Positions 7,759 to 61,987 of a stretch of DNA of 64,000 nucleotides are shown here, in pieces (the stretch's first letter is position 1; each line of letters begins with the position of its first letter). The position numbers were made by a program, and so were the translations under genes. This stretch comes from a virus. The notes beneath the pieces are model-generated. The model was given only the letters and a program-made list of their open reading frames with translations, ran no database searches and was not told the origin of the DNA. The stretch covers positions 1 through 64,000 of the IMG/VR virus record IMGVR_UViG_3300045988_176357. The stretch is one strand, 5' to 3'.

Positions 7759-7770
7759 AAGGAACATTAT

Positions 7771-9159
7771 GTGGCAAATTTAGCAACAATACAAAAGATA
7801 GCGAAAGTACGTGAGATCGACTCCACCAAGCGTGACATATGTGAATTGCGGTTCGAGGATTCCCTGTGGCATGTCGTAGGACAAAAGAACACATATAGTA
7901 TCGGGCAGCGTGTCGTCTTTTTCGCTCCTGGCAGTGTGATTCCAAAGGACACGGAAGCTTATAAGCACTTATGTGACTTTGTACGCAGTAACGCGAAAGG
8001 AATGGAAGTCACAGACGACTGCATTCATGTACACGCCTCGTCTGTAGGCATCAAGCATAAGACACACGGTCTGGTGCTTCCGCTTTCCTTGTTCCCTGAG
8101 CTGAAGAAGATGCCTGTTCGGTCAGATGTCACAGATCGGATCGGTGTTATTTCAGAGCGAGCGCTTAACACGAACGTAATTTGTGCCTCGCCTGATCTCG
8201 TTAAGCTGCCTCAGCCTGACTGGATACCTGCACGCAAGTTTGTCGACTTACGTGATCGTCCGGAAATGTTCGGCAGGTGCCAGCACTCGCGTTTCTATGG
8301 CGAGCTTATGGTCGACGGCAGCATTCCTGTTGCCGTGTACTGTGTAAGCGACAAATATGATGCGGATCGGTTTGGCGTCTGTGTCTTCGGCAACAAGATC
8401 AAGCGCCCAAGGTATTCGCAGGCAGAGATTAAGCGACTTCTGTATCAGCAGCCAAAAAAAGAACGGGGCTGTTTGCTGTCCCTGTGGGAATTGGCTGCGC
8501 ACTGCTGTCAAAGTCTGTGGCACTGGGCTACACATACCGATCAGGAGCTGCAGAAAGAACGGGACGAACAACAGCAGGAAGTGGACGATCTGGAACTTAT
8601 GCTGTTTGAGCGCAACGATCTGTGGAACACAATTGAGATCGAGAACATTGAACCAGCATTGAGCGAGTGGCAGCGCCGTACAGGGCGCAGCATAGTAGTC
8701 TTCTTCGAGTGGGTAGGACCTGACATACAAGGTAACCCGGAACGATATCCAGACCACAGACTGTATGCCAGTGATGTGTACGACTTGGATGGACAGAAGT
8801 GGCTGCTGCCCAAAGAACGTGAACTGTTCCTCGACGGTATCAGCAAACGGATACGCCAGGTAGTCAAGTGCTACCATGACTATCCCTTTGCAGGCAGCAG
8901 TGTTGACTCGACAATAGGTCTTGTAGCGGATATCTGCAATAACCGCAACACAGGGAAAAAGGGCATAATATTCAAGAGCTCGCAGGAACCTTATATGACT
9001 TTCAAGGTGCTCAGCGATCTGTACGGCAAGAAAACCAAAACGAGACTCAGCAAGGCAGCAACAGCCAATGACTACTTTGCTGCGCAGGAACGAAAGAGAA
9101 AGGAAAAGCAGGAAAGGTATCAAAAAGCGTATCCGCAGGCGAGACAGCCTGCAATGTGA
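7771..9159 (+). CDS. hypothetical protein (462 aa)
   Basis: Intact ORF with RBS. Lys/Glu-rich C-terminus. Ends with TGA exactly where the IStron-like element begins. Confidence 0.6.
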   Translation: MANLATIQKIAKVREIDSTKRDICELRFEDSLWHVVGQKNTYSIGQRVVFFAPGSVIPKDTEAYKHLCDFVRSNAKGMEVTDDCIHVHASSVGIKHKTHGLVLPLSLFPELKKMPVRSDVTDRIGVISERALNTNVICASPDLVKLPQPDWIPARKFVDLRDRPEMFGRCQHSRFYGELMVDGSIPVAVYCVSDKYDADRFGVCVFGNKIKRPRYSQAEIKRLLYQQPKKERGCLLSLWELAAHCCQSLWHWATHTDQELQKERDEQQQEVDDLELMLFERNDLWNTIEIENIEPALSEWQRRTGRSIVVFFEWVGPDIQGNPERYPDHRLYASDVYDLDGQKWLLPKERELFLDGISKRIRQVVKCYHDYPFAGSSVDSTIGLVADICNNRNTGKKGIIFKSSQEPYMTFKVLSDLYGKKTKTRLSKAATANDYFAAQERKRKEKQERYQKAYPQARQPAM

Positions 9160-9502
9160 TGCGCTTAAAGGTACCTTCACACCGCGAGGTGTGTCGAATA
9201 AGAAAGTGAATTGCTGGGACACCTTAACGGGTAATGCCGAAGGCAATCAGCAGCCGAGCTTATGGATGCCCGGACCGGGTGCCATAGGAAGGTTCATCGA
9301 CTATCCCGTAATGGGAGTACCCGAGCAGCCTTGCAGCGATAGCAGCAGAAGCAAGGGGAAGCACTCTGGCTCAGGAATGAGTCAATGATATAGTCAGTGC
9401 CTTGTGGAAACACAAGGAGTGGTCAGGAGTGACACCCTGAAACCTGGCAAGGTTTGGTACACCTTGCTGAACAGAACCATGGTAGTTAACACATCGACAA
9501 TG
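9160..9502 (+). ncRNA. group I intron moiety of the IStron-like element
   Basis: 9170-9420 is a near copy (point substitutions only) of nrdD intron 2230-2460, including R (ggttcatcgactatccc) and S (aatgatatagtcagtg) elements. The 3' part is diverged but shares aacctggc..gaacagaacc..acatc.aca. Confidence 0.65.
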
Positions 9503-9571: not shown

Positions 9572-10702
9572 ATGATAGCAAGCAGAGCACACAAGATAAA
9601 ACTCATGCCGACGCCTGAGCAGCAGGAGAAACTCCGCAGGAGATTTCTCCAAGGACAGGCGGTAAGGCACTTGTGCATCGAGTGGAGCTGTGAAATGTAC
9701 GCAGCCTGGAAACAGGACCCTGCGAACAATGCTTACCCATCATATGAAGCGATGGATAAGCGGTACACAAAGGAGAAGCCCGAGGAGGGCAACCTCCTTC
9801 CAAGGTGTTCAGCGCAGCGTAAGGTGCGCGACACCTGGAAGGCAGTGGAAAACCACATCAAGCACCCTGATAAGTACGCATGTCCGGATTACACCAAGAA
9901 GCGTGATGTACATGAGTACACGCTTTATGTGAACAATCAAGCGGCAGAAGTGGGCACAGATCACGGTAAGCCTTATGTTCACTTTCCAAAGCTCGGACTT
10001 ATTCGGCTCGCCGAGGAGTTCCGCTTCAAAGGTGCACGCATAATGTCGTACACCTTTTCGTGGGATTGTGTGGACATGTATGTGTCCATACAAGCGCAAG
10101 TTGAGGTTACTCCGATGTGCACCAACGACTCCACAGTTGGAGTCGATGTGGGTCTCAAGCACATTGCGGTCGCCTCAGATGGCACCACACTCGACTACCC
10201 GAAGGCGTACAAGAAGGCGCAGAAGCGTGTACGCGCGGAGCAGCGTAAGCTGCAGCGCAAAGTTCAAGACAGCAACAATTACTGGAAGCAGTACAGGCGT
10301 CTCAAAAAGGCGTACAAGAGAAAGGCGAACGTTATTAACGACGCCTTACATAAGTACACCACACGGCTATGCAAGACGCACAGCACAGTCGTCACAGAGA
10401 ACCTCAGTATTGCAGACCTTATCAAGACGTCCGAGAAGTGGATGCGAAGAGGCTTCGCCTTGTCCCAGATGAAGCGACTGATTCAGCTGCTTCAGTACAA
10501 GGCTGCCATCTACCGGCAGGTAGAACGATTCTTCGCGAGCAGCAAAACTTGTTCCCGCTGCGGCTACAAGAACAATGCGCTCACACTTGCGGATCGTACT
10601 TATGTGTGCCCCGAATGCGGCCTCCAGATAGACCGTGACCTCAATGCGGCGCACAATACACGCAATTTCATTGTAGGGTCGGTCAGACCCGATCTCCGGT
10701 AA
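9572..10702 (+). CDS. tnpB: IS200/IS605-family TnpB (RuvC-like RNA-guided nuclease, OrfB)
   Basis: 376-aa ORF. C-terminal Zn-finger and RuvC-III region CSRCGYKNNALTLADRTYVCPECGLQIDRDLNAAHN. Upstream RBS aagagg. Confidence 0.85.
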   Translation: MIASRAHKIKLMPTPEQQEKLRRRFLQGQAVRHLCIEWSCEMYAAWKQDPANNAYPSYEAMDKRYTKEKPEEGNLLPRCSAQRKVRDTWKAVENHIKHPDKYACPDYTKKRDVHEYTLYVNNQAAEVGTDHGKPYVHFPKLGLIRLAEEFRFKGARIMSYTFSWDCVDMYVSIQAQVEVTPMCTNDSTVGVDVGLKHIAVASDGTTLDYPKAYKKAQKRVRAEQRKLQRKVQDSNNYWKQYRRLKKAYKRKANVINDALHKYTTRLCKTHSTVVTENLSIADLIKTSEKWMRRGFALSQMKRLIQLLQYKAAIYRQVERFFASSKTCSRCGYKNNALTLADRTYVCPECGLQIDRDLNAAHNTRNFIVGSVRPDLR

Positions 10703-16604: not shown

Positions 16605-16682
16605 GGGACCGTAGCTTAGTCGGTTAGCAGCTGCTGACTCATACTCAGCCGGCCGCAGGTTCGAGCCCTGCCGGTCCCACCA
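16605..16682 (+). tRNA. tRNA-Met (anticodon CAT; elongator Met or Ile-lysidine type)
   Basis: Cloverleaf: acceptor GGGACCG/CGGTCCC, D-arm GCTT..AGC, anticodon stem GCTGA/TCAGC with loop CTCATAC, T-arm GCAGG TTCGAGC CCTGC. Encoded CCA. G1-C72 argues against an initiator. Confidence 0.85.
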
Positions 16683-17036: not shown

Positions 17037-17072
17037 AAAAAGGGGCCGTAATGGCCCCTTGAGTTTTCTTTT
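17037..17072. terminator. bidirectional rho-independent terminator
   Basis: aaaaggggccgtaatggccccttgagttttctttt. A/T runs on both sides. Sits between convergent genes. Confidence 0.75.
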
Positions 17073-17159
17073 ACTATGCAGCGGATACGTACTGTCATGA
17101 TCTCACCGGCATTGCACCGGAGTCGGCGTATTTCCAAATGTCACAGTATAATTGAGTGT

Positions 17160-18533
17160 TCATGATACTCCGATTTCCTGCATCAGCCATGCTATATTGT
17201 AGGTGTCATCAATGGCATAATCATAGATTCTTGCACGCGTGATACACGCATACAAATTGCGCCACGAACCACTCCAGGTATAATTGCCGAAGTTGAAACT
17301 ATAGGAGCTTGATAGGGTTAGAGACTTACTGGCACTTGTCTTCAATGTTCCATTTATATATAGTTTACACATGCCGTCCGTCGTGTATGTCACTAAAATG
17401 TGATACCACGTGTCAAGCTGTAACTCTTGTGTAACACCAATTAAAGAGTTACCTTCTTTCGTGCTCATCGTTATTGATGTGCCGTTAACCTGCAATCCCA
17501 ATCCATTGTATCCGTCATTGCTGCCATAAAAGAAAATCAGTTTGTTTTCCATCGTTTGTGTAAGACGCAATCCAAAAGAAATACTGATTTCGTGATTACC
17601 ATTCGGCAATGTACTATCTTTATCCCAATGTAAATAACCTGAATTAAGTACTGCTGTGGGAACACCGTCAACAGTGGAAAAGCTTACATTGCCTTCATTG
17701 CCTGTTGTAATACTTCCCGGATTTATCTCTATACTGTTATCCGTCATCAAAGGCACATAAAATACCGGGAGTGCTGGTTCAACGGCAAGGCTGCTGTAAA
17801 GAACGGCGACACGCACAGAACATGTGCTGTCATATATCATTCCGACTTGCGGAGTCATCCCGCTGTAAACCAGTCCTTCCGTGAGATCATCGCTGATCGT
17901 GTAACCGTTATCCCCCCACACCGCCTTGTAGCCGCTCCATGTCTTTGCGGTATCGTATGGGGTCAATACAAGGTCAGGATAGGCGTATGGGCTTGTATTG
18001 TTTTGCCAGCTCGTCACTTCCCACGGGTTGTCAGGGACCGTCGTCATGACTGAACGTATTTTCATTGTGTCCGAAGCTACATCGAATATGCACCAACGAT
18101 CTATCCCAGCAGTTGCGTTAGTATTCCTGATTTCCCATACGCCATCGGAAGTTCTCCATGTTCTGTTTTTCCCTGTGGCAGTCGCATCCACAATTGTATA
18201 CGTGCCATTGCATCCGTAAGCTGTATCACCAGTTACCTCGATAACAGCCCCAGATACTCCCGGTGTTACGCTGGCGCACTTGTAATACCCCGCCGAGGTG
18301 CCGCCGGAGCTCTCCAGCGTCCCTACAATGCCGTAGATGCTTACACCGGATTTGATGTTCTCCCCCAGCAGGTTGGCGTCTCCTGCGACCTTCACGGCTT
18401 TTGGCAGGTAGATTCCTTCAGCGGTTGATAATACTTTATCTTCAACGCCCGGTATAATCAGGCTTGAGCCGGTATAAGAGCTTATCGTGCCGGTGATTTT
18501 TTCACCGTTGACATAGGCTGTCTTACCGCTCAA
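17160..18533 (-). CDS. receptor-binding / tail fiber protein with C-terminal LamG (concanavalin-like lectin) domain
   Basis: Standard-code ORF. N-terminal SGGTSAGYYKCASV and TWSGYKAVWG modules are shared with the TAG-recoded gene 39679..40740. C-terminus is LamG-like. Start uncertain: TTG in track and no upstream ATG before TGA. Confidence 0.65.
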   Translation of the reverse strand: MSGKTAYVNGEKITGTISSYTGSSLIIPGVEDKVLSTAEGIYLPKAVKVAGDANLLGENIKSGVSIYGIVGTLESSGGTSAGYYKCASVTPGVSGAVIEVTGDTAYGCNGTYTIVDATATGKNRTWRTSDGVWEIRNTNATAGIDRWCIFDVASDTMKIRSVMTTVPDNPWEVTSWQNNTSPYAYPDLVLTPYDTAKTWSGYKAVWGDNGYTISDDLTEGLVYSGMTPQVGMIYDSTCSVRVAVLYSSLAVEPALPVFYVPLMTDNSIEINPGSITTGNEGNVSFSTVDGVPTAVLNSGYLHWDKDSTLPNGNHEISISFGLRLTQTMENKLIFFYGSNDGYNGLGLQVNGTSITMSTKEGNSLIGVTQELQLDTWYHILVTYTTDGMCKLYINGTLKTSASKSLTLSSSYSFNFGNYTWSGSWRNLYACITRARIYDYAIDDTYNIAWLMQEIGVS

Positions 18534-18709
18534 GATATCGCCCGCCCCAGCCGTGGCGTCTGTGGTGTCCGTGCCGCCTGATTCGATGCCGCCAATAGCA
18601 TTCGCACATTGGTACAGCGTGGAGTCCTGCGACAGGCTGCCGCCTTTATTGTTGATCGCCGTCCATACTTGTCAAAATATCATTCAAAGCCATAAATAAC
18701 CTCCTCAAG

Positions 18710-19642
18710 TTAAGCTGTTGTTACTGTCCATCCACGCTCAATAAGTGTCTGTTTATCTATTAATCCCTGACCAGTTGGTGGAGCTGATATTTCCTGATAG
18801 TTTATGTCCAAAGTTCCATTGGTTTTCGCATTCGAGACAAGCGATGCCAGTATATTATTCACAACATCAGAGGTAAATTTGTTAGAGTAGGCGGCAAGGT
18901 ATTTTAATGCTGTGTTTTGCGCTATATTCAGCATAGTTAAACCGTTGTTATTGCACGCTAACGTTACGAGGTTTGCATTATTACTGATATCAAGAGCTGA
19001 CAAAGCGTTCCCCTTACAATCCAGTGAAGTTAATGTGGGACATAAACTTATGTCGATGGATGTTAATGTGCTAGTCGTACAATTCAATGTCGTAACTGTT
19101 CCTTGTATCGTTGTTGTTCCTGCTGACAAGGTAAATTCAGCAGGGAATTCCGTATAGGTCTGTGAGGCGGATCCATTTGTTACAATGACAGAGCCTGTTG
19201 CATTGATTGCGACTTTACTTTGTCCTTGTGATCCGCTTTCTGATACGAGTGTAATTATTTCATCTCCTGATTCTCCGCCGCTGCCGCCTCCTGTCGGCGT
19301 CCCTATGATCGCCATTGCGGCGGATTCAAATGCGGATGTGTCGCCGCCGGAAGCATACGCCGGTTCAGCCTTTCCTGTATTGAATATCTTGGCTGCATAG
19401 CTCTCTGCTGTTCCGTTCGCCATTGCCGATGTGCCGCTGAATTCCAGAGGCTGCACTTTCAGTCCGGTACTGTCAGATACCAGCACACCAACCTCAAGTC
19501 CGTTCTCTATGGTCTGCACAGCTGCGGCAATGTCCATGAGGCTGTAAGGAGAAGCAACAGCGGCTCCCTTAGCTTCAGTCGCGCTCTTCAGTTTATTCCT
19601 GGCAAAGTCCAACGCATTGTATATATTGTCACTCTTAGACAT
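18710..19642 (-). CDS. leucine-rich-repeat (LRR) protein, probable receptor-binding accessory protein
   Basis: LRR units LTSIDISLCPTLTSLDCKGNALSALDISNNANLVTLACNNNGLTMLNI. Standard code. Start overlaps the stop of the upstream aaRS-like gene. Confidence 0.7.
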   Translation of the reverse strand: MSKSDNIYNALDFARNKLKSATEAKGAAVASPYSLMDIAAAVQTIENGLEVGVLVSDSTGLKVQPLEFSGTSAMANGTAESYAAKIFNTGKAEPAYASGGDTSAFESAAMAIIGTPTGGGSGGESGDEIITLVSESGSQGQSKVAINATGSVIVTNGSASQTYTEFPAEFTLSAGTTTIQGTVTTLNCTTSTLTSIDISLCPTLTSLDCKGNALSALDISNNANLVTLACNNNGLTMLNIAQNTALKYLAAYSNKFTSDVVNNILASLVSNAKTNGTLDINYQEISAPPTGQGLIDKQTLIERGWTVTTA

Positions 19643-20705
19643 GATGTATCCTTAATCTTTCAACAGCTTCTTCTTTACCTATAGCCTGCAGCACTGTATT
19701 GAGGTCGAGCGAATACGGGCTTCCGCACAGTGATTTCCTTGCAGCTCCGTATGCTTCCTTCCTGTCAAGCTTCTGTGCAGCTATCCATGCATCCACAGGC
19801 TTCTCACAGTCGAGGTACTTAATAAGACCCTCACATGAAATATGTTCCGGTCTTTCCCACAGATACCTGAACTGCACAGCGTCTTCTCCGCACCTTACAT
19901 GCTGCTTTATATACTGCCAGTACATGCCGCTTCCAGGCACACACGCCTCGCACACATCAGCACTCATATAGTCCCTGTTCATAGCCTTCAACTTCTTCAG
20001 ATCCATATGCGCAGGACTTTTATTGTTGCCTATGCTCAGCAGATACTTGTACAGGCACTCAGGCAGAATGCCCATATCCAGCACCTTCCCTACAGTGCCC
20101 GCACGATCTCTCTTGCTGAGAGGCTTCCCGTCGTCGCCGAGTATCATGGACATCGATCTGTACTCAGGAGCCTTGCATCCCATGGCTTCATACAGTGCAA
20201 TCTGCTTGCAGGTGTTGAACACATGGTCGTTGCCTCTGATGACAATAAGCTCTCCGAGTTCCATGAGAAGTGAATCATCCACGGCGTTGGCAAAGATGAA
20301 TGATGGCTCACCGTTGCTTCTGATGCATACAAACGGTTCCCAGGAGCTGTAGATGTTGCCCTGCACCTTGTCCTTGTAAGATGCTTCGCCTGCAGGAAAC
20401 CATATGGCACCATCCTTCTCAAACATCTTTCCCTTGCTCACAAGGTCTTTGGCTATGGAGATATGAAGTTCCTTGTTGTCGGACTGCCTGTATATCCTGT
20501 CAGGTTCCATGCCCATGCGCTTCATCGTGCCTATGATGCGTTCCGTGCACGCAGGTACCAGGCGGTCGTTGGCTGTGTCTTCTACTCGAAGTACAAAGAT
20601 CCCGTGCTCCCTGCGTGCAAGGTCATGGTTCAGTGCTGCCATGCGAAGGTTGCCTATGTGGATGTCGTCGCCGGTAGGCGAAGGTGCGAATCGTGTGACT
20701 GTCAT
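19635..20705 (-). CDS. class I aminoacyl-tRNA synthetase catalytic core of the GluRS/GlnRS family (GluQ-RS-like, no anticodon-binding domain)
   Basis: TRFAPSPTGDDIHIGNLRMAALNHDLARREHGIFVLRVEDTANDR aligns to the GluRS HIGH region. FANAVDDSLLMELGELIVIRGNDH and GDDGKPLSKRD match the KMSKS motif. 356 aa, standard code. Confidence 0.8.
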   Translation of the reverse strand: MTVTRFAPSPTGDDIHIGNLRMAALNHDLARREHGIFVLRVEDTANDRLVPACTERIIGTMKRMGMEPDRIYRQSDNKELHISIAKDLVSKGKMFEKDGAIWFPAGEASYKDKVQGNIYSSWEPFVCIRSNGEPSFIFANAVDDSLLMELGELIVIRGNDHVFNTCKQIALYEAMGCKAPEYRSMSMILGDDGKPLSKRDRAGTVGKVLDMGILPECLYKYLLSIGNNKSPAHMDLKKLKAMNRDYMSADVCEACVPGSGMYWQYIKQHVRCGEDAVQFRYLWERPEHISCEGLIKYLDCEKPVDAWIAAQKLDRKEAYGAARKSLCGSPYSLDLNTVLQAIGKEEAVERLRIHHV

Positions 20706-20861: not shown

Positions 20862-21095
20862 GTGGACACTATAGTTGATATCGTAAAGCAAGCAGAAGAA
20901 AAATAGCTTGCGCTTGCCAGAGCGCACAACGAGAATCTGAGACAGCAACTTGCAGCAACTGAAAAGGAACTGCGTGACAACTGGTTTCAGATTCTTCGGC
21001 TACAGTATCGTATAGATATGCTGGTGGGTTCAGCTATTGTTGCAGTTATCAGCATGATTGCCATCATTGCAGCTTACTTCATGTTTGCCCATTGA
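20862..21095 (+). CDS. small coiled-coil plus C-terminal TM protein with an in-frame TAG
   Basis: GTG start after RBS aaaggag. ..VKQAEEK-TAG-LALARAHNENLRQQL..VGSAIVAVISMIAIIAAYFMFAH. Position and architecture parallel the ORF at 14622. Confidence 0.3.
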
Positions 21096-21342
21096 GCACT
21101 AAAAAGACCCGTATGGTTGCTGCCATACGGGTCCAAACAGAAAGGTTCTCTTGTGATAAAGGAAATGTCTCTGCTGTTGCACAGCTCCAGAACAGTTGTG
21201 CAGTTCATTGAAGTTCGATAGTAGATCGAGCTTCTCCTCAACAAGGAACTGTCTTATTGTACATCCGACAGTGACAAAATCAAAGTACTGAAGAAGTGCA
21301 TTGACTGTCTGTTGCTGAAAGATTACATACAGTAAGCAAGCA

Positions 21343-21376
21343 GGGGCCGCAATGGCCCCTTGAGTTTTCTTTTTAC
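21343..21376. terminator. bidirectional terminator (same hairpin family as 17037)
   Basis: caggggccgcaatggccccttgagttttcttttt. Confidence 0.7.
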
Positions 21377-21439
21377 TATGCAGTGGAAGACGGCAGCAGT
21401 CCCTTCTGTCCTTTATGCAGTGTGTACATATTGGCCTTC

Positions 21440-22174
21440 TTATTCCGTTGTATTGGTACCATAGAATGCGTTGACTGCGTTTGTCACGTTGGGAAGCTTC
21501 GCCAGGAACGCAGAGCGGGAGCCTGTCACTGTTCCGGGCGAGTTGCCTGAACCGGCGTTGTAGAACATGGACATTATATTTCTTACTTCTGTCCAGCCTC
21601 CTTCAGGCGCATTGGCTGTGAGGTCATCAAGGTTGATTACAGCCAACAGAGTATTGTCAAATGCTGATACAAGACTTCCAGTGAGTCCAGCCGGAAGCCT
21701 TGTAAGCGGCAGCGTAGCTTTGGTGCAGCCTTTGAACATGGAACTTGCTGCAGTCATCCCCTTGGGAAGTTCTGAGAAGTTAAACAATGCATTGGTGCAG
21801 CCTTCGAACATGTTAGTGCCATTTGTAATGTTCCCCAGCGCATCCCAGTTGCCGTTGGCATCATATACAAGTGGTGCGTATGTGCCATGGTATCCGAACA
21901 TACATCTATAGCAGTCCGCCTTAATTCTTATTGTGTACGTTCCAGCTGCAGCATAAGTGTGCGTGAGTCTGGTGCCGCTCGCAGTCGCATCCTGCGGCGC
22001 TCCGTCGCCCCAGTCAACAACCTTACAGTAACCGCCAGTGTTCCAATAAGGAGTGAAACCATAGGTGAGCGAGTTGCCAAGGATTCCGGGCTTCACAACA
22101 AGCTCGAAGTAAGGTCCAAGATTGGAGCCCATCGGATCCAGCGGATAAGGTATTGCAGACATCGGTATCTCCAT
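21440..22174 (-). CDS. BspA-type LRR / PKD-like surface-binding protein
   Basis: Standard-code ORF. PKD-like GDGAPQDATASGTRLTHTYAAAGTYTIRIKA. BspA-like FEGCTNALFNFSELPKGMTAASSMFKGCTKATL. Confidence 0.65.
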   Translation of the reverse strand: MEIPMSAIPYPLDPMGSNLGPYFELVVKPGILGNSLTYGFTPYWNTGGYCKVVDWGDGAPQDATASGTRLTHTYAAAGTYTIRIKADCYRCMFGYHGTYAPLVYDANGNWDALGNITNGTNMFEGCTNALFNFSELPKGMTAASSMFKGCTKATLPLTRLPAGLTGSLVSAFDNTLLAVINLDDLTANAPEGGWTEVRNIMSMFYNAGSGNSPGTVTGSRSAFLAKLPNVTNAVNAFYGTNTTE

Positions 22175-22381
22175 AATTAAAGCTGTTTGACATTACAGTA
22201 TATACAGTACGATATACGTAACATCTCATGCATATAACGTATGTGCACACGTCCGGCAGGACAAGGCATCAGTGTGTACACGCATGAGAAGCACAATAAG
22301 GGTACAAATACGCGGAGCGTATCAGTACACTGGAGTGCCTGATCTGTGGCACTTTCTAGCGGCACATCCGAGGATACCACT

Positions 22382-23974
22382 ATGCGGGACTTATGGAATA
22401 CAGGCACCGAAGACTCTCCAATACTGCAGGGACAGGCAGGGAAACCCTTTTATCACTAGAAAGGTCCAAAGCTCAAGTTTCCCGACAACCCGGACAACAT
22501 CGTCGATAACAGCTGCTACTGCAGATATCCTTATATGCGCTATTTTTGGATCTACGCGAAAGTAGACTAGCAGACCCAGCAGCTGGACTTCTTCAGATTG
22601 TCCTTTCCTCAGGAAGCTCAGCAGGGCGACTGGTATGCGAACTACAGCATACAGCGTGCATAGGGCTGGCAGTGGGAAGTCATATAGCAGTACCACTATG
22701 CAGGGTGCGCAGCTCACAGAACCGATGTCGGCATATGGCAGACAGTACCTCTGTTCCCCTATGCCCAGCAGTGCGATGACGAGGACGACGAATAGATACC
22801 GATAAGCAACCTCACCTTCCCTAGCCCCTTGTATATAGGCTCCAAAGATGAGACCACAACTCAAGGGGGGCAACAGGTTGACACTCCATGCAGGAAGAAC
22901 ACAGGACCTGCTTCCCTTATGCGAATGCTTGTCTGTTCCTACAAGTGCTGCAACAATGTGCAGGGCTGCGGAACATAGGTAACCAATGACGACGATCCTC
23001 TGATCTGTCCTCCTGCAGGCAACTTCTGTTAGGCGTAGTTCAACGTCTCCTGGGAATATGACAAAGATGGCGCACAGAAGTTCTCATATGTGTCCATGCC
23101 ACTTAATGTGACATGCGGCTAGTGTCACCATCCCTAGCGCACAGATATCCTTTCCTGCACAACAGCCAGAATAAGGCTCTTCGGATAGCGCCTTGCTTTA
23201 GATGACTACAGCGTGTAGTCATGTGAGTAGTGCTGCAGGAAACTTAGGGACAGGGTGCTGTAGATGAAACCTCCTGTTGTGGACTGCAGAATATACAGGC
23301 TGTACGAATACCCAAAGGTGCCGCATGAAGATCCCGAAATAGGATGCACATGGGGAGAACCTGTTCTTGTATAGACTGCATAGGACTGGGCGCGTGTTCC
23401 ATATCAGATAGTCGGCAAGGGAGACGGCTGCCTTCCGCAGGGAGCGCATCAGCTGGACTATGTTCTCATATGCGACCAGACGAGCATGCAGGTAGTGGCA
23501 TATCAGTGGGTATAGTCAGCCGATTGCAATACCTAGCCCGATCCTCCGACAGACGGTCCTGTAGGATAGAGCACAAAAGGAACATAGTGCGACTGCGAGC
23601 CTATGCAGCAGGGCCAGTTCTTCCTTGATTAGGGATCGACACACGGTGACCGCAGCAATGAAGACCCTCCGTGCAACATTCCCGATGCTCCTCCATACAA
23701 GTACAGAAAGCTCAGCTCCAGCTGGCCTGCTCCATAGTTCGAACATACTCCGTTCGAGATCTACAGAGTCCGCCTTATAACGGACGGAGGCACAGGCTCC
23801 AACTAGAAGAGCTGCGGCATGTACCAGATGTAGACCGATGACAGCGGAAACATTCAGTGGCAGCGTGTCGCCAGTCACATGTACGACTATTAGATACTGT
23901 AGAACGGGTACATGGACAAGCTGGAGACGAGGTTCACATAGGAATAGGGTTCTTCTTATTATTACACTATAGTA
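22382..23974 (+). CDS. Cys-rich protein (TAG-recoded, about 35 in-frame TAG)
   Basis: Frame 2 is free of TAA/TGA from TGA 22340 to TAA 23972. First ATG is at 22382. Traced by coordinates. Confidence 0.5.
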
Positions 23975-24208
23975 AGGCAGGGCTGTGAGCCATAGGTGAA
24001 CTAGCAGGACAAGAGCCCGTTCGGCGACGACTGGCTGTAGGGACCTGCGGACAAGAACTGTTCCACATACTTCGCAACATACTGGAATCCGCAGGACGAC
24101 TGCAGCGGCAACACATAGAACCCGCCGCACACCACCGGCTGCACCAAATGGGACAGGCTCGGTCCGTTCAACTTCTCTCAGCTGAGTTCCCTCGGTCTGA
24201 TACCCGAC

Positions 24209-27200
24209 ATGTGGATACCTTATCAGTATGCATAGAACAAGTGGGGATACAAGTACATAAGAAGCAGCGGCGACGATTTCGGCTTCTGCGAGGATCCTCC
24301 TGCGCCGCCCAATATACAGAACGGTTTCTTTGTCATATCCATGTGGGCGCCTGACTGCGACTCATGCGGCAATGTGAACGGCTATCATGAACCATAGAGC
24401 TACAGACCTTAGCCGCAGTGTGCAATGATACAGCCCAATCTGTGCGAGGATCCGGTGCTTTAGCCGCTCGGCACAGGTTATCACCTGCACGTCACATCAA
24501 CATCTCAGGATTCGGATGTCACAGTAAGTCACAACTACTATCCTGTCGAGGACCAGAACGGCTATAACTGCACGATATCGCAGCAATAGGCAATGAAGTA
24601 CGAGTGCAATCTCGTATATGTCGTGTTCTCGGACAAGTTCGTCGACTACTGTCCGAGGTTCGAAGGCGGAATTGTGTTCAAGCCTGAAGACTCCACTCCC
24701 TATACGATATCCGGAGATGCATAGCCAGGCACATAGATAGAGGTCCAGTATGGATCTCAGAAGATCCTGGCCACAGTGCTGGCTGTGAACATGGATGCGG
24801 ACTACTGGTAGTAGCAATTCAAGGATGCGCAGATACAGTTCGATCCTTACTGCTGTGCCAGATACTACTATTACTATGTCAAAGTCCCATTGAAGGATCT
24901 GAACTAGCTTCCCTGTGTCAATCCGGACATGCAATGGCAGTTCGCAGGAAAGATTCCGTAGGCGTAGTTCATTCACTAGTGGATGTAGACGGACGTTTGG
25001 CTGTATGTGCAGCAGGAGAATACATAGCCGTATGCCATATTATGGAAAGCCGTATAGGAGAAGCTGTAGGGTGATGACCTCAAGATCACCGCAGCCATAA
25101 CAGGACAACATGTAAAAGATCCTGGCGTCGGCGCATATCTTGTTTAGGGCTGGGGCGCATAGTGCGAAGGTGAACAGGGCACATTGTCCGGCACAACGCC
25201 TCCTTAGTCCTGGGAATCTTCATTGCAGCCCATATCCGCTCCCAGCGCCGATGTGTATTAGGCTGCCGCAGCGTATGCAGGTTCGCAGAAACAGGACAGC
25301 TATACATAGTACTGCAAGACATATGACACTACAGCTGACTGTCAGCCCGCAGGTTCATAGGAAGTCTGCGCCACGTATGAAGACCCTGCAGTCTCGGGTC
25401 TGTACGCATTCAATGCTGCCACAGGCTAGTATGTGCAGGTCACAAGAAATGTTCCATAGGGCTTCTGCTAGGTCTTCTATTAGGAAGTCGCTGCCAAGTA
25501 CTGGTGTGTCCTCGGTTCAGATTTCAGGTACAACAGCAAGCCTGTGTACTATTCAGGCGTGCGCACTGAACAGGGCACGCCAAAGCTGATTTCCTTCGCA
25601 GGTACAGAATTGCAGGTATAGGAAACGACGCTGTAGCTGTAGAGCTGCTAGATCACAATTCAGTTCCCACTTACAGTGTACCCCGCGAAGAAGAACTTTG
25701 AGTAGCAGCTGAAGAACACAGAGCTGCAATTCGACTAGAACTGCTGTAACACATTCTCGTATTTCGGCTACAGCTACAGTTGCTCTTAGTTCTATCGGGG
25801 TGAAGGCCATTGCGGAGAGCCATGGCATTGGCCGACCAGGGACACATCTCAGTGTGCATCAAAGTGGTACTATATGGGAAAGATGCCGATGGCCACCTTC
25901 TACAGGAAATACCTTGCGCTTAACTGCTGGGTTCCTTTTGCTCCTTCCTCTGAGGACGACATCGGAGAAATCAGCTATTTCGTACAGGTTTCAGACAGCT
26001 CCAATTTCTGTTAGCCTGCGCCGCAACATGATGTCCCTCCATATATTTTAGGGCAGTGGTTGACGACTATCTAGCCTGATAAATGTGTGAATGGAGTTCC
26101 TGTAAAAGATGTATAGCAGTGTGTGCTTAATTATGCTCCTCCGCATTTATCGCCTTTTTAGGCCATGCCTCTGCTGATTGCAGCCGGTTGTACATGGCCG
26201 TATGAGTTCCAATCTTGTGATCCCGTCTATTGCATGGGTAACCGGGTGCTGCCCGGTGGTCTGTGGAGCCCGAATGAAGGCCTGGGCGGAAAGATACTTA
26301 TAGATTCACCTGATAACTGCTGCTCTGCATATTTCGTACGGAAGGACGTTACGTTATTCGGCGTAGCCATTAACTTTCCAGAGGCGAAAGGATACTTCAC
26401 AGGCAGGTTTGATACAGATACAGGATATCCGATATTCATCAATTTTGATGCTCCTCAGAATTCAGCCTCATCCAGGACAATACAGAAGGTGAACATAGAC
26501 GGCTCCGATGTGCGTTATATATTGTAGGAATACCCAAGATCGTATACAGAGCCGTCTTTATGCGGAAGAAGGATAGAGTTTCACCGGAGCTGCCTGCCAC
26601 AGGTCAAGTTCACATTGTTCTATTTGTAGTACTTGCCGTGCAAGCCTTATCCGACTCAGTACACAAAAGGCGATACGCAGACGCCGTAGTGGACATAGGT
26701 GCCGAAGGATCCCTGCGGTATCGATAAGATCTCCAACATTCCTGCAGGCGGCTGGTATGCCAAACCGAATCCCACAGCGGATGACGATCACGATCCGTAG
26801 CCGCTCGATCCCTGCGAGCCCTGGTACTGGGTTGTTCCTGTATGGCACTGTGAGGATGAGTAGCCTGCGGCTCCGACAACATTCCCGTAGGATCCTCCGA
26901 CATGGTAGTGCTGCCGCCAGATATACGTGTACTATCAGAAGATCAGCCCCGGAGATAAGCGGAAAGAGTACGATTCACAGGGCAACCTGATACAGAAGAA
27001 CTATTGCGACGTCCCTTGTGATGTCGACGGTAACGGCGTCGCAACATGGGCTCTTTCCGGTCCATATGTTCTGTACGTATAGGAGTGTCCTGATACACAT
27101 GACGGCATAAAGGAATAGGACATCCCGGGAGACGGCTTCTACTTGTCCACAGATATCACGCAGGGTTTCGGAGGTGCTGTGCCTGTACAGGACGGCTAGC

Positions 27201-28543
27201 TTAAGCCTTCCAGCTGCGACCCCTTCTATTACATTCACACAGAGATCCACTGCAAGGGCTAGGATATAGTGCCGCCTACGTGGTGTCCTCCTAACCAGCG
27301 GGTCAACTGGGATGTGTGCAGATGCAGAATCAAGGTTCTCAAGATAGGACCGATAAGAGGCAGGCTGCATTCATACGGCAGCTCATCCTAGTGGGCGTAT
27401 CTGCCGTGCAAGGACTATGCTCCCGGATTCAGTACAGCCAGAATAGATATACTTATAGGAGACAGCGTTGACGACAAGAGTCTCCGTGTTTCTTACTATA
27501 AAGGCGTGGCAAAGGCTGCCAACTATGAGTATGACTGCACAAAGATGGATTGTCCGTTTACAACCCTTGACAGCTACAGAAGGCGCTCTGCAGGGAGCTA
27601 CACCTACTACACTACAGTAGGTACAGGCGGGTAGAACGAATACGGACTCCCAAATATAGTGGCGTGGAACTACAGTTGGAGCGACGGACGCACACGGTAC
27701 TTCTATTGCAACCCGCAAGCCAGGGACGCAAGCATATACGTCGGCGTGTGTCTTGACAGCATGTGCTAGGTATAGCCGACAGACGAATAGATGCTCAGCT
27801 GGATAATAGGTGACCTGTCGGATGACTCAAGACTGGTGTCCAGTTATGATTTCCACACAGTGCACTACCACCCATAGGCTTACTGCAGCGATTTCGCCAC
27901 CAAATGGTGCGGATGCAATAATGTCGGTAACCGGAGCTGTAATGCCAATATCAACTCTTTCGTGTATACTACAGAGTATAGCTCAACTCAGACGACAACA
28001 GGTAACTGTACACAGCCGATAACCCATACTATGTACGAGGGCAGCTCTACAGAAGTGGTTTAGGTGTGTAACACTAATTACAGTGCAAATAGCGTAGACG
28101 TATATTTCCGTACTACGCAATGTCTGGGTTACTAGCCCGGCAGCTGGGACTGCTATACATAGTAGGAGTGTCAGCGATATGCTCCTTCCTATATTTTCAG
28201 TTTTTATACAGGCAAGCTGTAGGGCGACACATATACATCCATGTCGTGTGCCGATGCTCTGTGCGGCGATGGAGAGTTCATAGGATACGGCTCAGCAGGC
28301 TACTACGGAACGGGAACGAATAAGCCTTACTTTAGGTTGAGTGTGAACAGATCCTCAGGCTAGAACTATGCACAGATAACTGTAGACTTATCTCAGTACT
28401 CAGTCACGCAGAGTACAGAAGACTAGAGTACCTATACATGGGAGGACGGAGACTGTACGTACACAGATACATTCCACAACACAACCAACATTTCGCAGTA
28501 GATATCAGGCACATTAACCTTTAGAGTTACTTGTTAGGAGTGA
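24209..28543 (+). CDS. giant Cys-rich protein (about 1444 codons, TAG-recoded, about 60 in-frame TAG)
   Basis: Frame 2 is open from TGA 23996-98 to TGA 28541-43 except for TAG codons. Verified codon-by-codon backward from 26165 and spot-checked forward. First ATG is at 24209. Confidence 0.6.
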
Positions 28544-35884: not shown

Positions 35885-38767
35885 ATGTTCACAAGTTACA
35901 AGCCATAGCAGTTCACCAGATACCCCACTACAATAGTTCCTGACTTAAGCGCAGGATTCGATACTCCGGAAGCCACAATATAGCTTCTTGGAGTTTCCGA
36001 CAGCGCATCCGTTACAGTCACTGCCACAGGGCCGAATACAGCCAAGAAGTTCCGGTTCAACTTCAAGCTTCCAAAGGGACATGATGGTGCCGCAGGAGGC
36101 TTTGCTTAGCCTGTGGCAACTGCGCAGCAACTTGCCTAGAACCAGTCGCCCACTGTTCAGGTTACTGCATCCGGACCATCTTCAGCTAAAGTGTTCGCTT
36201 TCGAATTCGGCATTCCAAAGGGTGCGACCGGACCTAAGGGATAGAAGGGCGATACAGGGCAGCAAGGTCCGAAGGGCGATACAGGAGATACAGGACCTCA
36301 GGGATAGACAGGCGCTACCGGAGCAACGGGTCCCGCCAATACGCTTACCATAGGCACAGTATCTTCAGGTGACACTGCCGCAGCTACCATTACCGGTACA
36401 GCTCCCAACCAGGTTCTGAATCTGACATTGCCTAAGGGTTAGCGTGGTGCCAGCTTCACTGTCGATGCTACCGGCTTATTGTCCTAGAGGCCCACGTACG
36501 ACGCACAGACCAAAGGGTTCTCGTTCCTGGCTACGGATACTGGTAACTTGTACATCAAGCAGTCGGACACATCCGGCGACTGGTCTTAGGCTATTCCTTT
36601 CAGAGGGGAAGACGGAGCTGCAGCCGGTTTCGGCATACCCGTTGCATCCGCTTCTTCATTATAGCCCGCTCAGAATCCTACTGTCACTGTAACAGCTACC
36701 GGTTAGAACACAGCAAAAGTGTTCAACTTTACATTCGGCATCCCCAAAGGCTAGAAGGGCGAAAAGGGAGATCCCGGACAGGCTGGTGCTCAGGGAGCTG
36801 ACGGTGCACAAGGCCCATAGGGACCCGCAGGTCCTGCTAACACGCTTACCATAGGCACCGTCTCTTCCGGCGGCACTGCCCAGGCTTCCATTACAGGTGA
36901 TGCGCCGAACCAGACACTCAATCTTGTACTGCCTAAAGGCGACAAGGGAGACCCGGGAGCAGACGGTGCACAAGGAGCGGACGGAATCACTCCTCATATA
37001 GACGACACCACAAAACACTGGTTCATAGGTGATACGGATACAGGTGTCAGCGCATAGGCTATTCCCGGCGTCACTACGTATCAGATTACAGAAGTCGATT
37101 CAGGCAACTATGCTACTATATACAGCAAGAATGTTCCTGTAGGGCTGAAGACAAACACAGGCACGTATTATCCTATATAGAAGAATACGGTTACTCTGAG
37201 TGACAGCAGCTGCAGGATACACCTTATACCTTATCTCAGTTACGAAGGCACTGATACATTCACTCCTCCGTGGACGTTGTATGTAACAGGTGCAGGCGCT
37301 GACGGGCAGCCAGGCAAGGACGGTGTGGCTGGCGGCTACGGCAATGTTCTCGGCGGGTTAGGTATGCGCATTGCAGCATACACCTCTGATTCAACTACAG
37401 TAACCCTTACGCTTGATGACAACTCAGATTCCACTTTCGACTGGAGTGTACTGCAGCCGTCATCAGTTGTCCGCATCAATAACACAGGCGGCGATCATCT
37501 CGTAGACAGCGACGCACAGTAGTAGCTGTACTACCTGAAGGGCTATATCAGCAGTGTCAACCAGGCAACTAAGAAAGTTGTCATCGATGGATGGTACTAC
37601 GCATAGTCTCAGTAGCGCAGAGAGATAAGTTCCAACATCAGTTCGTAGGTCCAGCAGGAACAGTCCTGGCTGTACATTACAGATGAAGCCAGACGCGATG
37701 CCGCTTTCAGTACAGGCGACAAGAACTTCGTCACAGGACACAGGGCCGTCGCAAACGGCTCATGGAACACTGTCGCAGGCGATATGGCACATGCCTCGGG
37801 AGGTCTCAACACAGTAGCAGGAGATCTCAGCCACGCTTTCGGTACAGCCAACAATGTACAAGCTGAAAGCGCTTTCGTAGCCGGTGTTGGTAACACAGTA
37901 AAAGAAACTGCAGGCCTGTCCATAGTTATTGGCGGCAGCAACGAAGTGCAGGCTTTCGGCTCCACCATTATTGGCAGCAATAATACAGGTCTTACCGGCA
38001 CGAACATGACTGCCATAGGTAACAGTAATGAAGGCTCCGGTACGCTGAGTACTGTTATCGGTAATAATAACACCATTAATGGGCAGTCAGGCAGAGTACT
38101 GGGCTTCGGCAACACCATGAACGCTCAGTTCGGTACACTGATAGGCATGCACGGAACGCTGGACAGCTATGCGTAGAACAGAGGAGCGTTCGCAGTTGCA
38201 ATAGGTTAGCTCGATCAGGCGCAGCTTCCTTTTATAGTGCGCGGATACAAAGCTGTACTGAATCCCCTGTTCAACTCAGACAGCACATCCTAGTCGCAAT
38301 TCCTTCTTCTGAACCCGAAGGACAGAACAGGCTAGCACAAGTACAACTCATAGCCTGGCTGCTCGGTGAGCTATATGGGACATCTCCTGGGCAACACATT
38401 CACTACGGACGCCACAGGTACCATAAGCCTGGATCATGACTTCTACAGCAGATGGGTGCTCACAGGAACAGGTGCCGTCACATTGCAGGCGGACAACTGG
38501 GTGGACGGAGATACAGGACACGTTGTAGTGGACACATCGAAGCAGACAATCAGCATTCCTGCTACATGGATCACAGGAGGCGCTGACATCGTGTCGACTC
38601 CTGGTATATATGTGCTGGAGCTGGTAAAAGTGAACTAGACCATATACTACAAAATAGTGTATCCTAATACAGAATCCTCAGGAAGCACCGGCACAGGGCT
38701 GGCGGTGGTCGTGAGTTCCACTCAGCCCTCGAACCCTGTAGACGGCATGATCTGGATACAGGAGTGA
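35885..38767 (+). CDS. tail fiber with collagen-like Gly-X-Y repeats, phage-fiber repeats and YadA-head-like repeats (TAG-recoded)
   Basis: Frame 2 is open from TGA 35867-69 to TGA 38765-67. RBS gagg before the ATG. GPKGQKGDTGQQGPKGDTGDTGPQG..; repeated ANTLTIGTVSSGDTA..APNQ.LNL.LPKG modules. Contains track ORFs 37277, 37784 and 38366. Confidence 0.7.
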
Positions 38768-38771
38768 TGTC

Positions 38772-39479
38772 ATGAGCGTGTCTGTATATAAGGGAGGCAC
38801 GTGGTATCCGCTGGCTAATTAGAGGATATTCAAGGACGGCATACCGCATGGCATCAAGCACAATGACTACATGTACTATGACGGCTAGTGGCACAGAATA
38901 TCCGACGAGTATATGGGCCGGATAATAATGACTCCGCAGACACATAACTCAGGCTCTGCCTCTGTGGATTCAGCAAAGAGTTACATCAGCGTGACAAGAG
39001 ACGGTGGCTCCCCATCATACATAACCGCATTTCCCGCTACCATACAGGTCAATTCATAGGTCACAGTCATATAGGGGGATGCTCTTGTATTCTCGTGCTC
39101 TGGTACGCAGCTGCAGTCACTCACATTCAGCGGCATGATTCCTTTGCTGAATTTCCAATGTGCCAGCTGCGGGCTCACCTAGATAGACCTGTCGGCATTC
39201 CAGTACCTGCGCACCTTGAATATACAGCGGAATGAGCTGACTTCCCTGGATACCAGAATGCTTAGCCAGCTGTACCAGTTATATGCGAATAATAACAGCC
39301 TGACTGCACAGAACATAGACCAGATACTGCAGTTCTTTGCTTACTCAGGAATAACAGGAGGCACCTGCTATCTGCAGGATCAGACGACAGGGGCAGGTCC
39401 GTCCTCTACAGGGCTGACTTATAAGTCTTCCTTATAGAGTAAAGGCTGGACAGTAGTGGTTGATCAGGGGAGTAATTGA
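38772..39479 (+). CDS. LRR protein (TAG-recoded), counterpart of the standard-code LRR gene 18710..19642
   Basis: ATG with RBS caggag. ..LTSLDTRMLSQLYQLYANNNSLTAQNIDQIL. Frame 0 is open to TGA 39477-79. Confidence 0.6.
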
Positions 39480-39678: not shown

Positions 39679-40740
39679 ATGAACATAAGTACTTAGAACC
39701 TTATTGATCTCGCTGGATCTGTACAGCTTAAGCCAGGGCAGAGAATGGTGCGTGTATCAGGCAACACATGGATGCCTATTGGCGTCGGCGGCAACTTCAT
39801 GCCTGGAGGAACAAGCGGCACCTCGGCAGAGTATTACAAGTGCGCCAGCGTTGCGGAGCCAGGCACCTTATCGGTCAATATACCGAACAATGCAGAACTT
39901 TCCGGGGTATATACTTACAATTCGTCAAATGGCAGATATGTAAATACAAATGGTGCATTCTTTTTGCATGACGGAAATTACTGGGTGCTGGTAGGTACCA
40001 ACGGATACTATTACTGTCAGAGCGATGAAATAGCATCTGATACTACTCCTGCTGACGCCACAGGATGGAAGCTGTCAAGTGGTTCAATGGATGCTATAGA
40101 TATGACTGTGACTATACCGAAGACATGGAGCGGCTACAAGGCGGTATTCGACTCAACGGCTGGAACGTGGAGCTTCGAGAGCGATGCCACAGAGGGGCTG
40201 ACATATACCAGCGTCACGCCGATCGTCGGCGGAATCTACAGTGCGGATGCCTTGGTGATTGTGTCATTGCTTTATACGGGCACGCCAACGCTGACCAGTC
40301 CTACCGGCATGCCCAGCGAGAGCTCCGACGAGTGGGAAATCAGTGCCAGCAGTTTCTACAGTGATAACTCTGCTCCGTGGAAAGCCTTCGACGGGATAAC
40401 AGGTAGCTCTTCTGGATGGACAGGAGCATCAAATTCTTCGTGGTGGCTTCAGTGGCAAAATAAGACGAAACAAGTGCTTGTGCAGAAGCTCAGATTTCAG
40501 GGTACAGCTTCCGGTGATATCGCACAGCAGGCTATCACCTCTTTCATCCTTCAGGGCTCTGATGACGGCAGCACATGGACAGACTTGTATACTGCGTCAG
40601 GCTTGACATGGACTACTGGATATGAGTGGAAAGAGTTCACGTTCTCGAACAGCAAGAGCTACTACTACCATAGGTTGGCAAACATCACCGTAGCTGCAAA
40701 CTATCCTACCATTATTGAACTTGAAACCTATGACATGTGA
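39679..40740 (+). CDS. receptor-binding protein with C-terminal discoidin/F5-8-type-C-like domain
   Basis: Strong RBS taggaga. One in-frame TAG. Shares SAEYYKCASV and TWSGYKAV modules with 17160..18533 but has a different C-terminal lectin-like domain. Confidence 0.65.
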
Positions 40741-40788: not shown

Positions 40789-41319
40789 ATGTATTAGGAA
40801 TACTCAGACAGCGATATCGTGTTACAGACCCTCGTTGACTAGAGCACAAATCAGTAGCTCAGCATCAGAACACCTTACGTGACACGCACAGTTACCATAG
40901 AGCAGCAACAGCGCATCCCGCTGTACATCAACGGCAAGCTCAAGTCAGCATAGCAGCTCTCACAGCTCGGCCTCCATGTGCGACAGTACACCAAGTTGTA
41001 GCGTTAGCAGATCTACTTCACCAACCTTTATGCGCAGGATGCACAGGGAGACAAGGCTCTGCAGCTTCGTGTCAGACAGTACAAGGCATATCTCGATCAG
41101 CTAGGACTCTCCTACAGCGTCTCCCAGGACACAATTATGGCTGCAATCCAGCAGTCAGACATGACGGATGCTTAGAAAGCTACAGTCGCAATGTAGATGA
41201 AAGCCATCTACGACGCCATTACCACCAATCTGTAGTTCTACGGATCTTAGACCCCGCACAAGGACACGTACAACTATATTGCAAAGCTTATACAGTACCT
41301 TCCGGAGGTGACAGAATGA
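40789..41319 (+). CDS. hypothetical protein (TAG-recoded)
   Basis: Frame 1 ATG. Stop overlaps the next start. Confidence 0.4.
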
Positions 41320-41564
41320 GTCTTCCGTAGTACATGATCACCGACTTGCCGCAGTATGTACACATCACAGACCGCAGCAAGTTTCAGAACTCCATAGTAT
41401 AGCCGGGCGCTGCACTTATATTCAGCTAGGACGGAGCATCTCTCACAGTCAAGCTTCCTTCAGGCATCTTTCAGAGTGTCTCAGGAGATATGAGCGATTC
41501 CACGTATCAGAATATCATGGGCATCATCGGAGACACATCCGCCGCCAGCAACAACGCACTTTGA
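41316..41564 (+). CDS. small hypothetical protein (TAG-recoded)
   Basis: ATGA overlap with the upstream stop. Frame 0 runs to TGA 41562-64. Confidence 0.35.
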
Positions 41565-61892: not shown

Positions 61893-61927
61893 AGCCCTCT
61901 TACTGCAACAGGTAAGGGGGCTTTTTT
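61893..61927 (+). terminator. rho-independent terminator
   Basis: gccctcttactgcaacaggtaagggggc followed by a T-run. Confidence 0.6.
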
Positions 61928-61987
61928 GTGCTCTGCTCTTACGCGCTAAGCTTTTTGATATACTTCAGCTACAGAAAGGAAACCTTC

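Follow-up and report, generated by a model that had tools for sequence, protein, structure and literature searches.

Tail-fibre slots of a TAG-recoded gut phage: probable rebuilding by recombination at conserved joints and recent import of TAG-free parts

Introduction

Exchange of receptor-binding parts has been described for several groups of phages. Tail-fibre and chaperone modules are reported to be common to distantly related Alteromonas phages (PMC10579305), protein fragments to be shuffled in phage host-interaction proteins (PMC10684548) and tailspikes to be modular (PMC10408124), and Klebsiella phages are reported to possess branched systems of two receptor-binding proteins (RBPs) with an anchor or branching domain and a docking peptide (PMC13352976, PMC13579863). 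For gut phages using genetic code 15, a model has been published in which recoded in-frame stops delay the late genes, that is, structural and lysis genes (Borges et al., bioRxiv 10.1101/2021.08.26.457843). Here, we analyzed 64,000 nucleotides (nt) of viral DNA (IMG/VR record IMGVR_UViG_3300045988_176357), which will be referred to as the window and represents positions 1-64,000 of the ENA scaffold LIJU14-1_SAMEA2338819_METAG-scaffold_51 (192,159 bp). It carries two gene pairs, each encoding a leucine-rich repeat (LRR) protein and a lectin-tipped short fibre: cassette A on the minus strand (lrrA, 18710..19642; fibA, 17160..18693) and cassette B on the plus strand (lrrB, 38772..39479; fibB, 39679..40740).

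These proteins resemble the mosaic RBPs (PMC10579305, PMC10684548, PMC10408124) in having a conserved N-terminal anchor and, distally, binding domains that can be exchanged, in exchange between unrelated phages, in breakpoints at short conserved linkers and in hypervariability among strains. They differ from them in that exchange appears to cross a genetic-code boundary, with TAG content marking resident versus imported segments, and in that two inverted slots of one genome also seem to trade segments. With the Klebsiella dual-RBP systems, they have in common several RBPs per virion with individual, here putative, docking N-termini and swappable distal parts in a similar layout of adaptor and fibre; there is no sequence relationship, and lectins and LRRs stand in the place of depolymerases. 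TAG-rich structural genes, an aminoacyl-tRNA synthetase (aaRS) in standard code and TAG aligned with Gln correspond to the code 15 gut phages, whereas some tail-fibre-type genes are TAG-free here, the aaRS is truncated and resembles a glutamyl-tRNA synthetase (GluRS), and neither the 64 kb nor the examined flanks of related strains revealed a suppressor tRNA.

We propose that this 192-kb gut phage, which would read TAG as Gln, possesses at least three tail-fibre slots (A, B and C), each with a resident phage-specific N-terminal anchor followed by interchangeable distal parts, namely, an adaptor domain (LRR, LamG or propeller) and a short fibre. The short fibre would be built from an anchor, the joint J1 (GGTSxEYYKCASV), an optional middle domain, the joint J2 (KTWSGYKAV), a stalk of ~50 amino acids (aa) and a lectin (LamG or discoidin). 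Homologous recombination at J0 (a joint in the LRR protein), J1 and J2, which are conserved at the DNA level, would shift parts between slots A and B and between strains, and the same joints would allow exchange with unrelated temperate-type phages without in-frame TAG. Recent imports would comprise, in cassette A, the LRR domain together with the anchor and middle domain of fibA and, in cassette B, the distal half of fibB; cassette A and the fibB body would be TAG-free because they came recently from phages not using TAG as sense. The parts taken as resident, lrrB, anchor B and the long fibre upstream of lrrB, contain TAG. Overall, we consider it probable that recombination at J0, J1 and J2 rebuilds the slots and that their TAG-free parts arrived recently.

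Results and Discussion

Relationship of the Two Cassettes

The initial annotation had described cassettes A and B as a duplicated receptor-binding module with swapped lectin domains. All four open reading frames (ORFs) exist, and BLASTP clearly demonstrated significant similarity between fibA and fibB (34% identity over 180 aa, E 4e-13), spanning the quoted motifs GGTSxxYYKCASV and KTWSGYKAV...TEGLxY..TP.VG.IY, as well as between lrrA and lrrB (31% over 161 aa, E 2e-17). The lectins are indeed swapped, both domains scoring above the Pfam cutoffs: the C-terminus of fibA represents Laminin_G_3 (PF13385; 53.4 bits versus a cutoff of 27.6, 4e-14), and residues 221-335 of fibB represent the discoidin-like F5_F8_type_C domain (PF00754; 31.4 bits versus 28.2), for which a PDB sequence search additionally matched factor VIII C domains (E 3e-7). 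An AlphaFold2 model of fibA (mean predicted local distance difference test score of 72) was confident for the middle domain and LamG. Foldseek searches with this model yielded ConA-like carbohydrate-binding jelly rolls (BoNT Hc and AbnA, E 1e-8 to 1e-10); matches were dominated by the LamG domain, and nothing was obtained for the fibA middle domain or stalk. The lrrA protein consists of a phage-specific N-terminal anchor of ~120 aa and a C-terminal part of the internalin-J type, as indicated by five stretches matching Internalin-J (3bz5, E 6.7e-30, PDB sequence search); the Pfam LRR_4/LRR_8 matches reached 17.7-18.7 bits, below the gathering cutoff of 27, so that the assignment follows from the solved homologue and extends to lrrB by homology to lrrA.

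The term "duplicated", however, proved misleading. At the DNA level, the likeness between A and B is restricted to two islands of 37 nt, J1 (18268..18304, minus strand, in fibA; 39815..39851, plus strand, in fibB; 94.6% identical) and J2 (17920..17956, minus strand, in fibA; 40111..40145, plus strand, in fibB; 91.9% identical), with flanks beyond detection by blastn. A simple intragenomic duplication of one LRR and fibre pair, with later divergence and one exchange of the lectin, would account for the equal order of the two genes and the common motifs, but the protein identity of just 31-34%, the confinement of nucleotide identity to these two islands, the different N-terminal anchors of A and B in both the LRR protein and the fibre, and the fact that A and B are each 92-96% nt-identical to segments of other phages or strains make it extremely improbable, and it was rejected. 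The cassettes rather appear to be two slots fed by a shared, recombining pool.

This combinatorial structure extends to the protein family. A profile search collected 215 family proteins, and the best 120 of them show anchors of five types (A to E) in free combination with a common set of middle domains and with alternative lectins; one protein (P0001) joins anchor B to the middle domain of the window's fibA and a discoidin tip. In the window, fibA contains anchor A (MALNDILTSMDGARDALV...), an AYVNGEKITGT extension, J1, a variable middle domain, J2, the stalk and LamG, and fibB contains anchor B (MNISTqNLIDL..., with TAG at codon 6), J1, a 91-aa middle domain, J2, the stalk and discoidin.

The fibA reading frame required correction. 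The ORF at 17160-18533 given in the initial annotation exists; the true coding sequence, however, covers 17160-18693 and starts at the ATG at 18693 behind a strong ribosome-binding site (RBS; GAGGAGG), which is out of frame in the window. The frame break arises because a 100-N gap of the source scaffold at ~18657-18663, flanked by a 7-nt duplicate (GACGGCG), is collapsed in the window, leaving it 23 nt short at 18657-18663 and creating a false frameshift. The independent Logan contig L027 contains the 23 additional nt and encodes an intact fibA of 518 aa (MALNDILTSMDGARDALVTAINNKGG...). A programmed +1 frameshift or a noncanonical fibA start, which had been considered, was thereby ruled out.

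Matches to Phages without In-Frame TAG

All comparison sequences are metagenome assemblies, and the closest relatives of the window phage derive from human-gut metagenomes. Two contigs are nearly identical to parts of the cassettes. L070 is a temperate prophage-like contig of 25.8 kb with tail genes, an integrase and an S24 repressor, without in-frame TAG and with a TAG stop in 0 of 23 genes. It is 95.4% identical to window positions 19351-18657 over 695 nt (LRR domain, spacer and fibA start) and 95.4% identical to 18309-17920 over 390 nt (J1, middle domain and J2), and its LRR protein shows 82.5% aa identity to lrrA. L032, a 64-kb IMG/VR phage contig also lacking in-frame TAG, is 94.6% identical to 19352-18689 and, in addition, 96.3% identical to the stalk and discoidin part of fibB (40118-40740). 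The homology to both contigs begins (19351/19352) at J0 (19279..19351, minus strand, GGDTSAFESAAMAIIGTPTGGG), a joint inside lrrA at which the homology to related strains stops, and J2 represents a crossover point in five contigs (L036, L040, L071, L070 and L032). Two further large contigs, L001 and L030, match the fibA extension (18524-18274) at 93% identity. Neither cassette had a match among the INPHARED phage records, at the DNA or the protein level.

Directly behind fibA, a remnant ORF of 22 codons (17095..17163, minus strand, MNTQLYCDIWKYADSGAMPVRS*) overlaps the fibA stop. Fourteen of its residues 1-16 are identical to the start of an intact 132-aa gene following the L070 fibre, and L032 12416-12465 corresponds to window 17166-17117 with 90% identity. 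As a remnant of the L070-type downstream gene, this ORF suggests that DNA of an L070-like phage entered the recoded phage.

In L070, L032 and L028, the tail module ends with the gene order long fibre, LRR protein, short fibre, which is also that of locus B. The long collagen-like tail fibre directly upstream of lrrB (35885..38767, plus strand, 966 aa, 26 TAG, PHROG tail and tail-fibre families) has homologues in the long fibres preceding the pairs in these three contigs (blastp E 1e-16 to 1e-20), and locus B is thus the canonical tail-fibre position. Locus B lies among collagen-like tail-fibre genes and locus A outside the structural block; locus A is best read as an ectopic copy behind the aaRS. 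A third position, locus C (41316..41564, plus strand), comprises an 82-aa ORF with 3 TAG and anchor type C only (MSLPqYMITDLPQYVHITDRSKF...), which in other strains or phages is fused to J1, J2, stalk and lectin as a full fibre. Since the ORF consists of the anchor alone, slot C appears to be "empty" in the window strain.

Alternative genetic codes are commonly regarded as barriers between phage gene pools. In the present case, a jumbo phage reading TAG as Gln shares cassettes at ~95% DNA identity with temperate-type phages without in-frame TAG, and TAG content separates resident from imported segments within one gene, which would make it a simple marker of the age and direction of transfer. 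J0, J1 and J2 represent defined joints that could be used for predicting or engineering host range.

Variation among Related Strains

A metagenome scan with the aaRS yielded 25 contigs of related strains (97-100% aa identity of the aaRS); an IMG/VR scan with the same query gave no match. In nearly all 25 contigs, nucleotide homology runs from ~22330 down to 19266-19343, comprising the aaRS and the initial ~120 aa of the lrrA protein, and returns at ~17164 or 17016, just beyond the fibA stop, with a strain-specific insert of 0.05-3.7 kb in between. In most contigs reaching J0, the breakpoints fall at 19266-19343. The lrrA anchor is kept in all strains, and its distal part is exchanged from strain to strain, the partners being LRR type 1, LRR type 2, LamG, a propeller-like domain of 540 aa or a small domain; a number of strains have the anchor fused directly to J1-J2-LamG. 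The fibres at locus A have varied middle domains or none, and varied LamG or discoidin tips, and two strains (L042 and L051) lack cassette A entirely. The variation seen consists of whole-domain replacement at fixed joints, not of point substitutions, which in targets of diversity-generating retroelements are adenine-specific. Locus B behaves similarly: in L071, another sequence takes the place of the lrrB body, and ~650 nt of fibA (window 18567-17920) lie within the locus-B fibre at 92% identity; in L072, the N-terminal ~45 aa of lrrB, whose remainder is strain-variable, are kept and the fibre has an A-like anchor. The recent acquisition that had been suggested as one explanation of the two pairs is strongly supported by these data: cassette A is 95% and the 3′ end of fibB 96% nt-identical to phage contigs without in-frame TAG, a donor remnant is present, and cassette A varies among strains and is sometimes absent.

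Tail fibres characteristically combine an N-terminal anchor that is conserved with a distal part that varies, as is the case here, and a position in the tail module beside other fibre genes was found for locus B and for the pairs of L070, L028 and L032, locus A lying outside. On this basis, lrrA, fibA, lrrB and fibB presumably represent receptor-binding or adhesion fibres of the virion that bind glycans. Since lectin and LRR domains are generic binders and locus A is dispensable and located outside the structural block, the proteins could, instead of binding bacterial receptors, be accessory adhesins, for instance for mucin or further glycans of the host, or "moron" cargo outside the virion, inserted at a permissive site where the aaRS operon ends. 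We consider this quite unlikely, as the pair closes the tail module right behind a long fibre in L070, L028 and L032, locus B lies among tail-fibre genes, and the lrrA anchor is conserved across strains, as expected of a part docking to the particle.

Several points nevertheless weigh against a rebuilding of virion fibre slots with imported parts. The direction of import, from TAG-free phage to recoded phage, is deduced from one remnant ORF and the TAG content. L070 and L032 hardly use TAG stops, and "standard code" for these phages means absence of in-frame TAG rather than a proven code. Metagenome assemblies break, or are possibly misjoined, exactly at the joint repeats. Furthermore, module matches were found in contigs from metagenome-assembled genomes (MAGs) of Lentisphaeria, Victivallaceae and Lachnospiraceae, which may be misbinned phage. 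A host assignment from these MAG matches was not trusted for the same reason; the donor phages presumably share a host with the window phage.

One contig carries a possible further product of the exchange: L035 13442-14785 is a chimeric ORF in which the N-terminus of a donor-type 160-aa protein (MSTATLEEIAELRRL...) is followed by middle domain, J2, stalk and LamG. It looks like the scar of an imprecise cassette import.

TAG Content and Translational Control

The window shows features of a code 15 phage, with structural genes containing in-frame TAG aligned to Gln in homologues. Long ORFs are ~2x longer when TAG is read as sense, and in-frame TAG is abundant on the plus strand from 22343 to 64000, whereas the ORFs of 1-22200 are essentially TAG-free. 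For late genes other than fibB, TAG/(TAG+CAA+CAG) amounted to 0.19-0.75. With 6/21, lrrB is typical for late genes, and the 1/12 obtained for fibB is the lowest value among them; fibA (0/10), lrrA (0/10) and the adjacent aaRS (0/8) are TAG-free. Cassette A can consequently be translated without TAG decoding and cassette B cannot, as initially annotated. The description of cassette B as a TAG-recoded pair holds for lrrB with its six in-frame TAG; fibB is only marginally recoded, its single TAG being codon 6, right after the RBS and ATG at 39679, with 0 in the 348 following codons. This codon aligns with Gln in P0113, and the predicted fibB peptide covering it, with TAG read as Gln, is MNISTQNLIDLAGSVQLK. 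The codon-6 TAG was read in DNA for two strains (the window and L071), and 37 of the 38 clusters with a B-type anchor were called from a Met after the codon-6 TAG, by which it appears to be conserved in anchor B.

The initial annotation had suggested that the two sets of host-range determinants are under different translational control. In such a regulatory partition, set A in standard code would be made together with the aaRS before or without suppression, and set B would be gated by TAG and expressed at a different time or conditionally. In line with this, cassette A is TAG-free in every strain with the window layout, whatever its domains (0 TAG among roughly 190 Gln-type codons, which are not independent), except for L037, in which protein 1 has one TAG six codons ahead of its stop; the TAG-free aaRS ends within the start of lrrA; the codon-6 TAG of anchor B is present in the window and in L071, with the 37/38 clusters implying conservation; and, in the model of Borges et al. 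(10.1101/2021.08.26.457843), structural and lysis genes are delayed by recoded in-frame stops. However, the exchangeable bodies at locus B are mostly TAG-free as well (all 24 clusters with B anchor and discoidin), cassette A is missing from L042 and L051, A-anchored fibres in L034, L050 and L074 carry 2-7 TAGs, and provenance alone accounts for the TAG-free state. A regulatory partition is therefore unlikely in our view. Different translational control is not needed to account for the pattern, and the two "coding regimes" seem mostly to record recent import; a TAG-free structural gene need not reflect regulatory design.

A Possible Inversion between Loci A and B

Invertible segments with alternative tail-fibre ends are known from the G segment of Mu (Gin), the C segment of P1 (Cin), the Min system of p15B and shufflons. 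As in these systems, the window contains two oppositely oriented alternative 3′ ends of a fibre per genome, and four contigs from different samples (L034, L040, L050 and L074) join the 5′ part of A to the 3′ part of B exactly at J2, such that the aaRS, the lrrA anchor and the fibre are connected to the genes downstream of fibB. An inversion of ~22 kb between the inverted slots A and B would give exactly this arrangement, which we regard as an unproven hint. J1 and J2 form inverted islands of 37 nt. Unlike in the known systems, the segment would be ~22 kb and include structural genes. A look-up for the reciprocal junction, with the 88-aa protein that neighbours the fibA terminator as query, yielded only window-like contigs or contigs ending inside the fibre, and this junction was thus not found. 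No invertase was seen near the slots, the window not having been scanned for recombinases. Because many contigs end at J0, J1 or J2, chimeric assembly of these short contigs, misled by the repeats, remains a plausible explanation for the junction.

Taken together with the codon-6 TAG and the aaRS, slots A (minus strand) and B (plus strand) could be read as a recombinational host-range switch. A crossover at the inverted J1 or J2 would invert ~22 kb, or one slot would convert the other, pairing the anchors anew with lectin tips; the codon-6 TAG of anchor B would act as gatekeeper and place any imported TAG-free body under the code switch, and slot A, coupled to the aaRS, would stay independent of suppression. 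If true, a recoded phage would draw on the receptor-binding gene pool of the standard code yet time its expression. We put this joint reading forward as speculative and rather doubtful.

Genomic Context

Upstream of lrrA, a truncated bacterial-type GluRS-like aaRS of 356 aa is encoded (19635..20705, minus strand; PF00749, 2e-41). It scored 203 bits with TIGR00464, below the cutoff of 290, and its match to the anticodon domain was weak. Since the aaRS stop and the lrrA start overlap by 8 nt, cassette A is probably cotranscribed and translationally coupled with the aaRS. The enzyme might charge a suppressor tRNA with Glu that is amidated later; however, searches with ARAGORN and Rfam in the 64 of 192 kb and in 11 related loci revealed no suppressor tRNA(CUA) nearby, only tRNA-Met. 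This tRNA-Met (CAT; 16605-16682, plus strand), the sole tRNA of the window, is located just past the fibA terminator and is kept in the strains.

Two copies of a 45-nt direct repeat, which forms a GC-rich hairpin, flank the aaRS-lrrA-fibA unit on both sides, one terminator-like beyond fibA (17041..17085) and one upstream of the aaRS unit (21342..21387). The repeat is confined to strains of the window phage. Four contigs (L035, L045, L048 and L053) show the loop of its hairpin in flipped orientation, and the deletion junction of L042 and L051 is exactly at the hairpin. Between hairpin and aaRS, within the minus-strand block, a small plus-strand ORF (~20870-21095) with one TAG encodes a predicted coiled coil with a C-terminal hydrophobic helix. 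The gene upstream of the hairpin, encoding a protein with PKD and BspA-like repeats (21440..22174, minus strand), represents a third strain-variable slot, which in other strains contains genes with TAG; in L036, an extra 578-aa beta-helix protein with 9 TAG (7597-9333) is located there. L040 carries a 425-aa ORF with 7 TAG (3-1280) upstream of the aaRS, which had no match among the contigs compared and is uninformative on genome arrangement. Both TAG-containing ORFs indicate that the minus-strand block is not uniformly in standard code across strains.

Divergent from the PKD/aaRS block, the late block on the plus strand begins with a giant ORF of 2067 codons (22343-28543) that is rich in Cys, Trp and Gln and contains 97 in-frame TAG, and it includes several collagen-like tail fibres. 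At 9121-9417 (plus strand), a group I intron (Rfam RF00028, 54 bits) was detected where an RNA-ligase-like gene has its 3′ end; behind the intron lies an IS605 OrfB/TnpB (Cas12f-like) gene at 9572-10702 (plus strand). The ORF at 61916-64000 (plus strand) continues past the window end and has weak PHROG matches only; a Hint-like CYRADTLILTKKGW... followed by an endonuclease-like stretch suggests an intein within a conserved enzyme.

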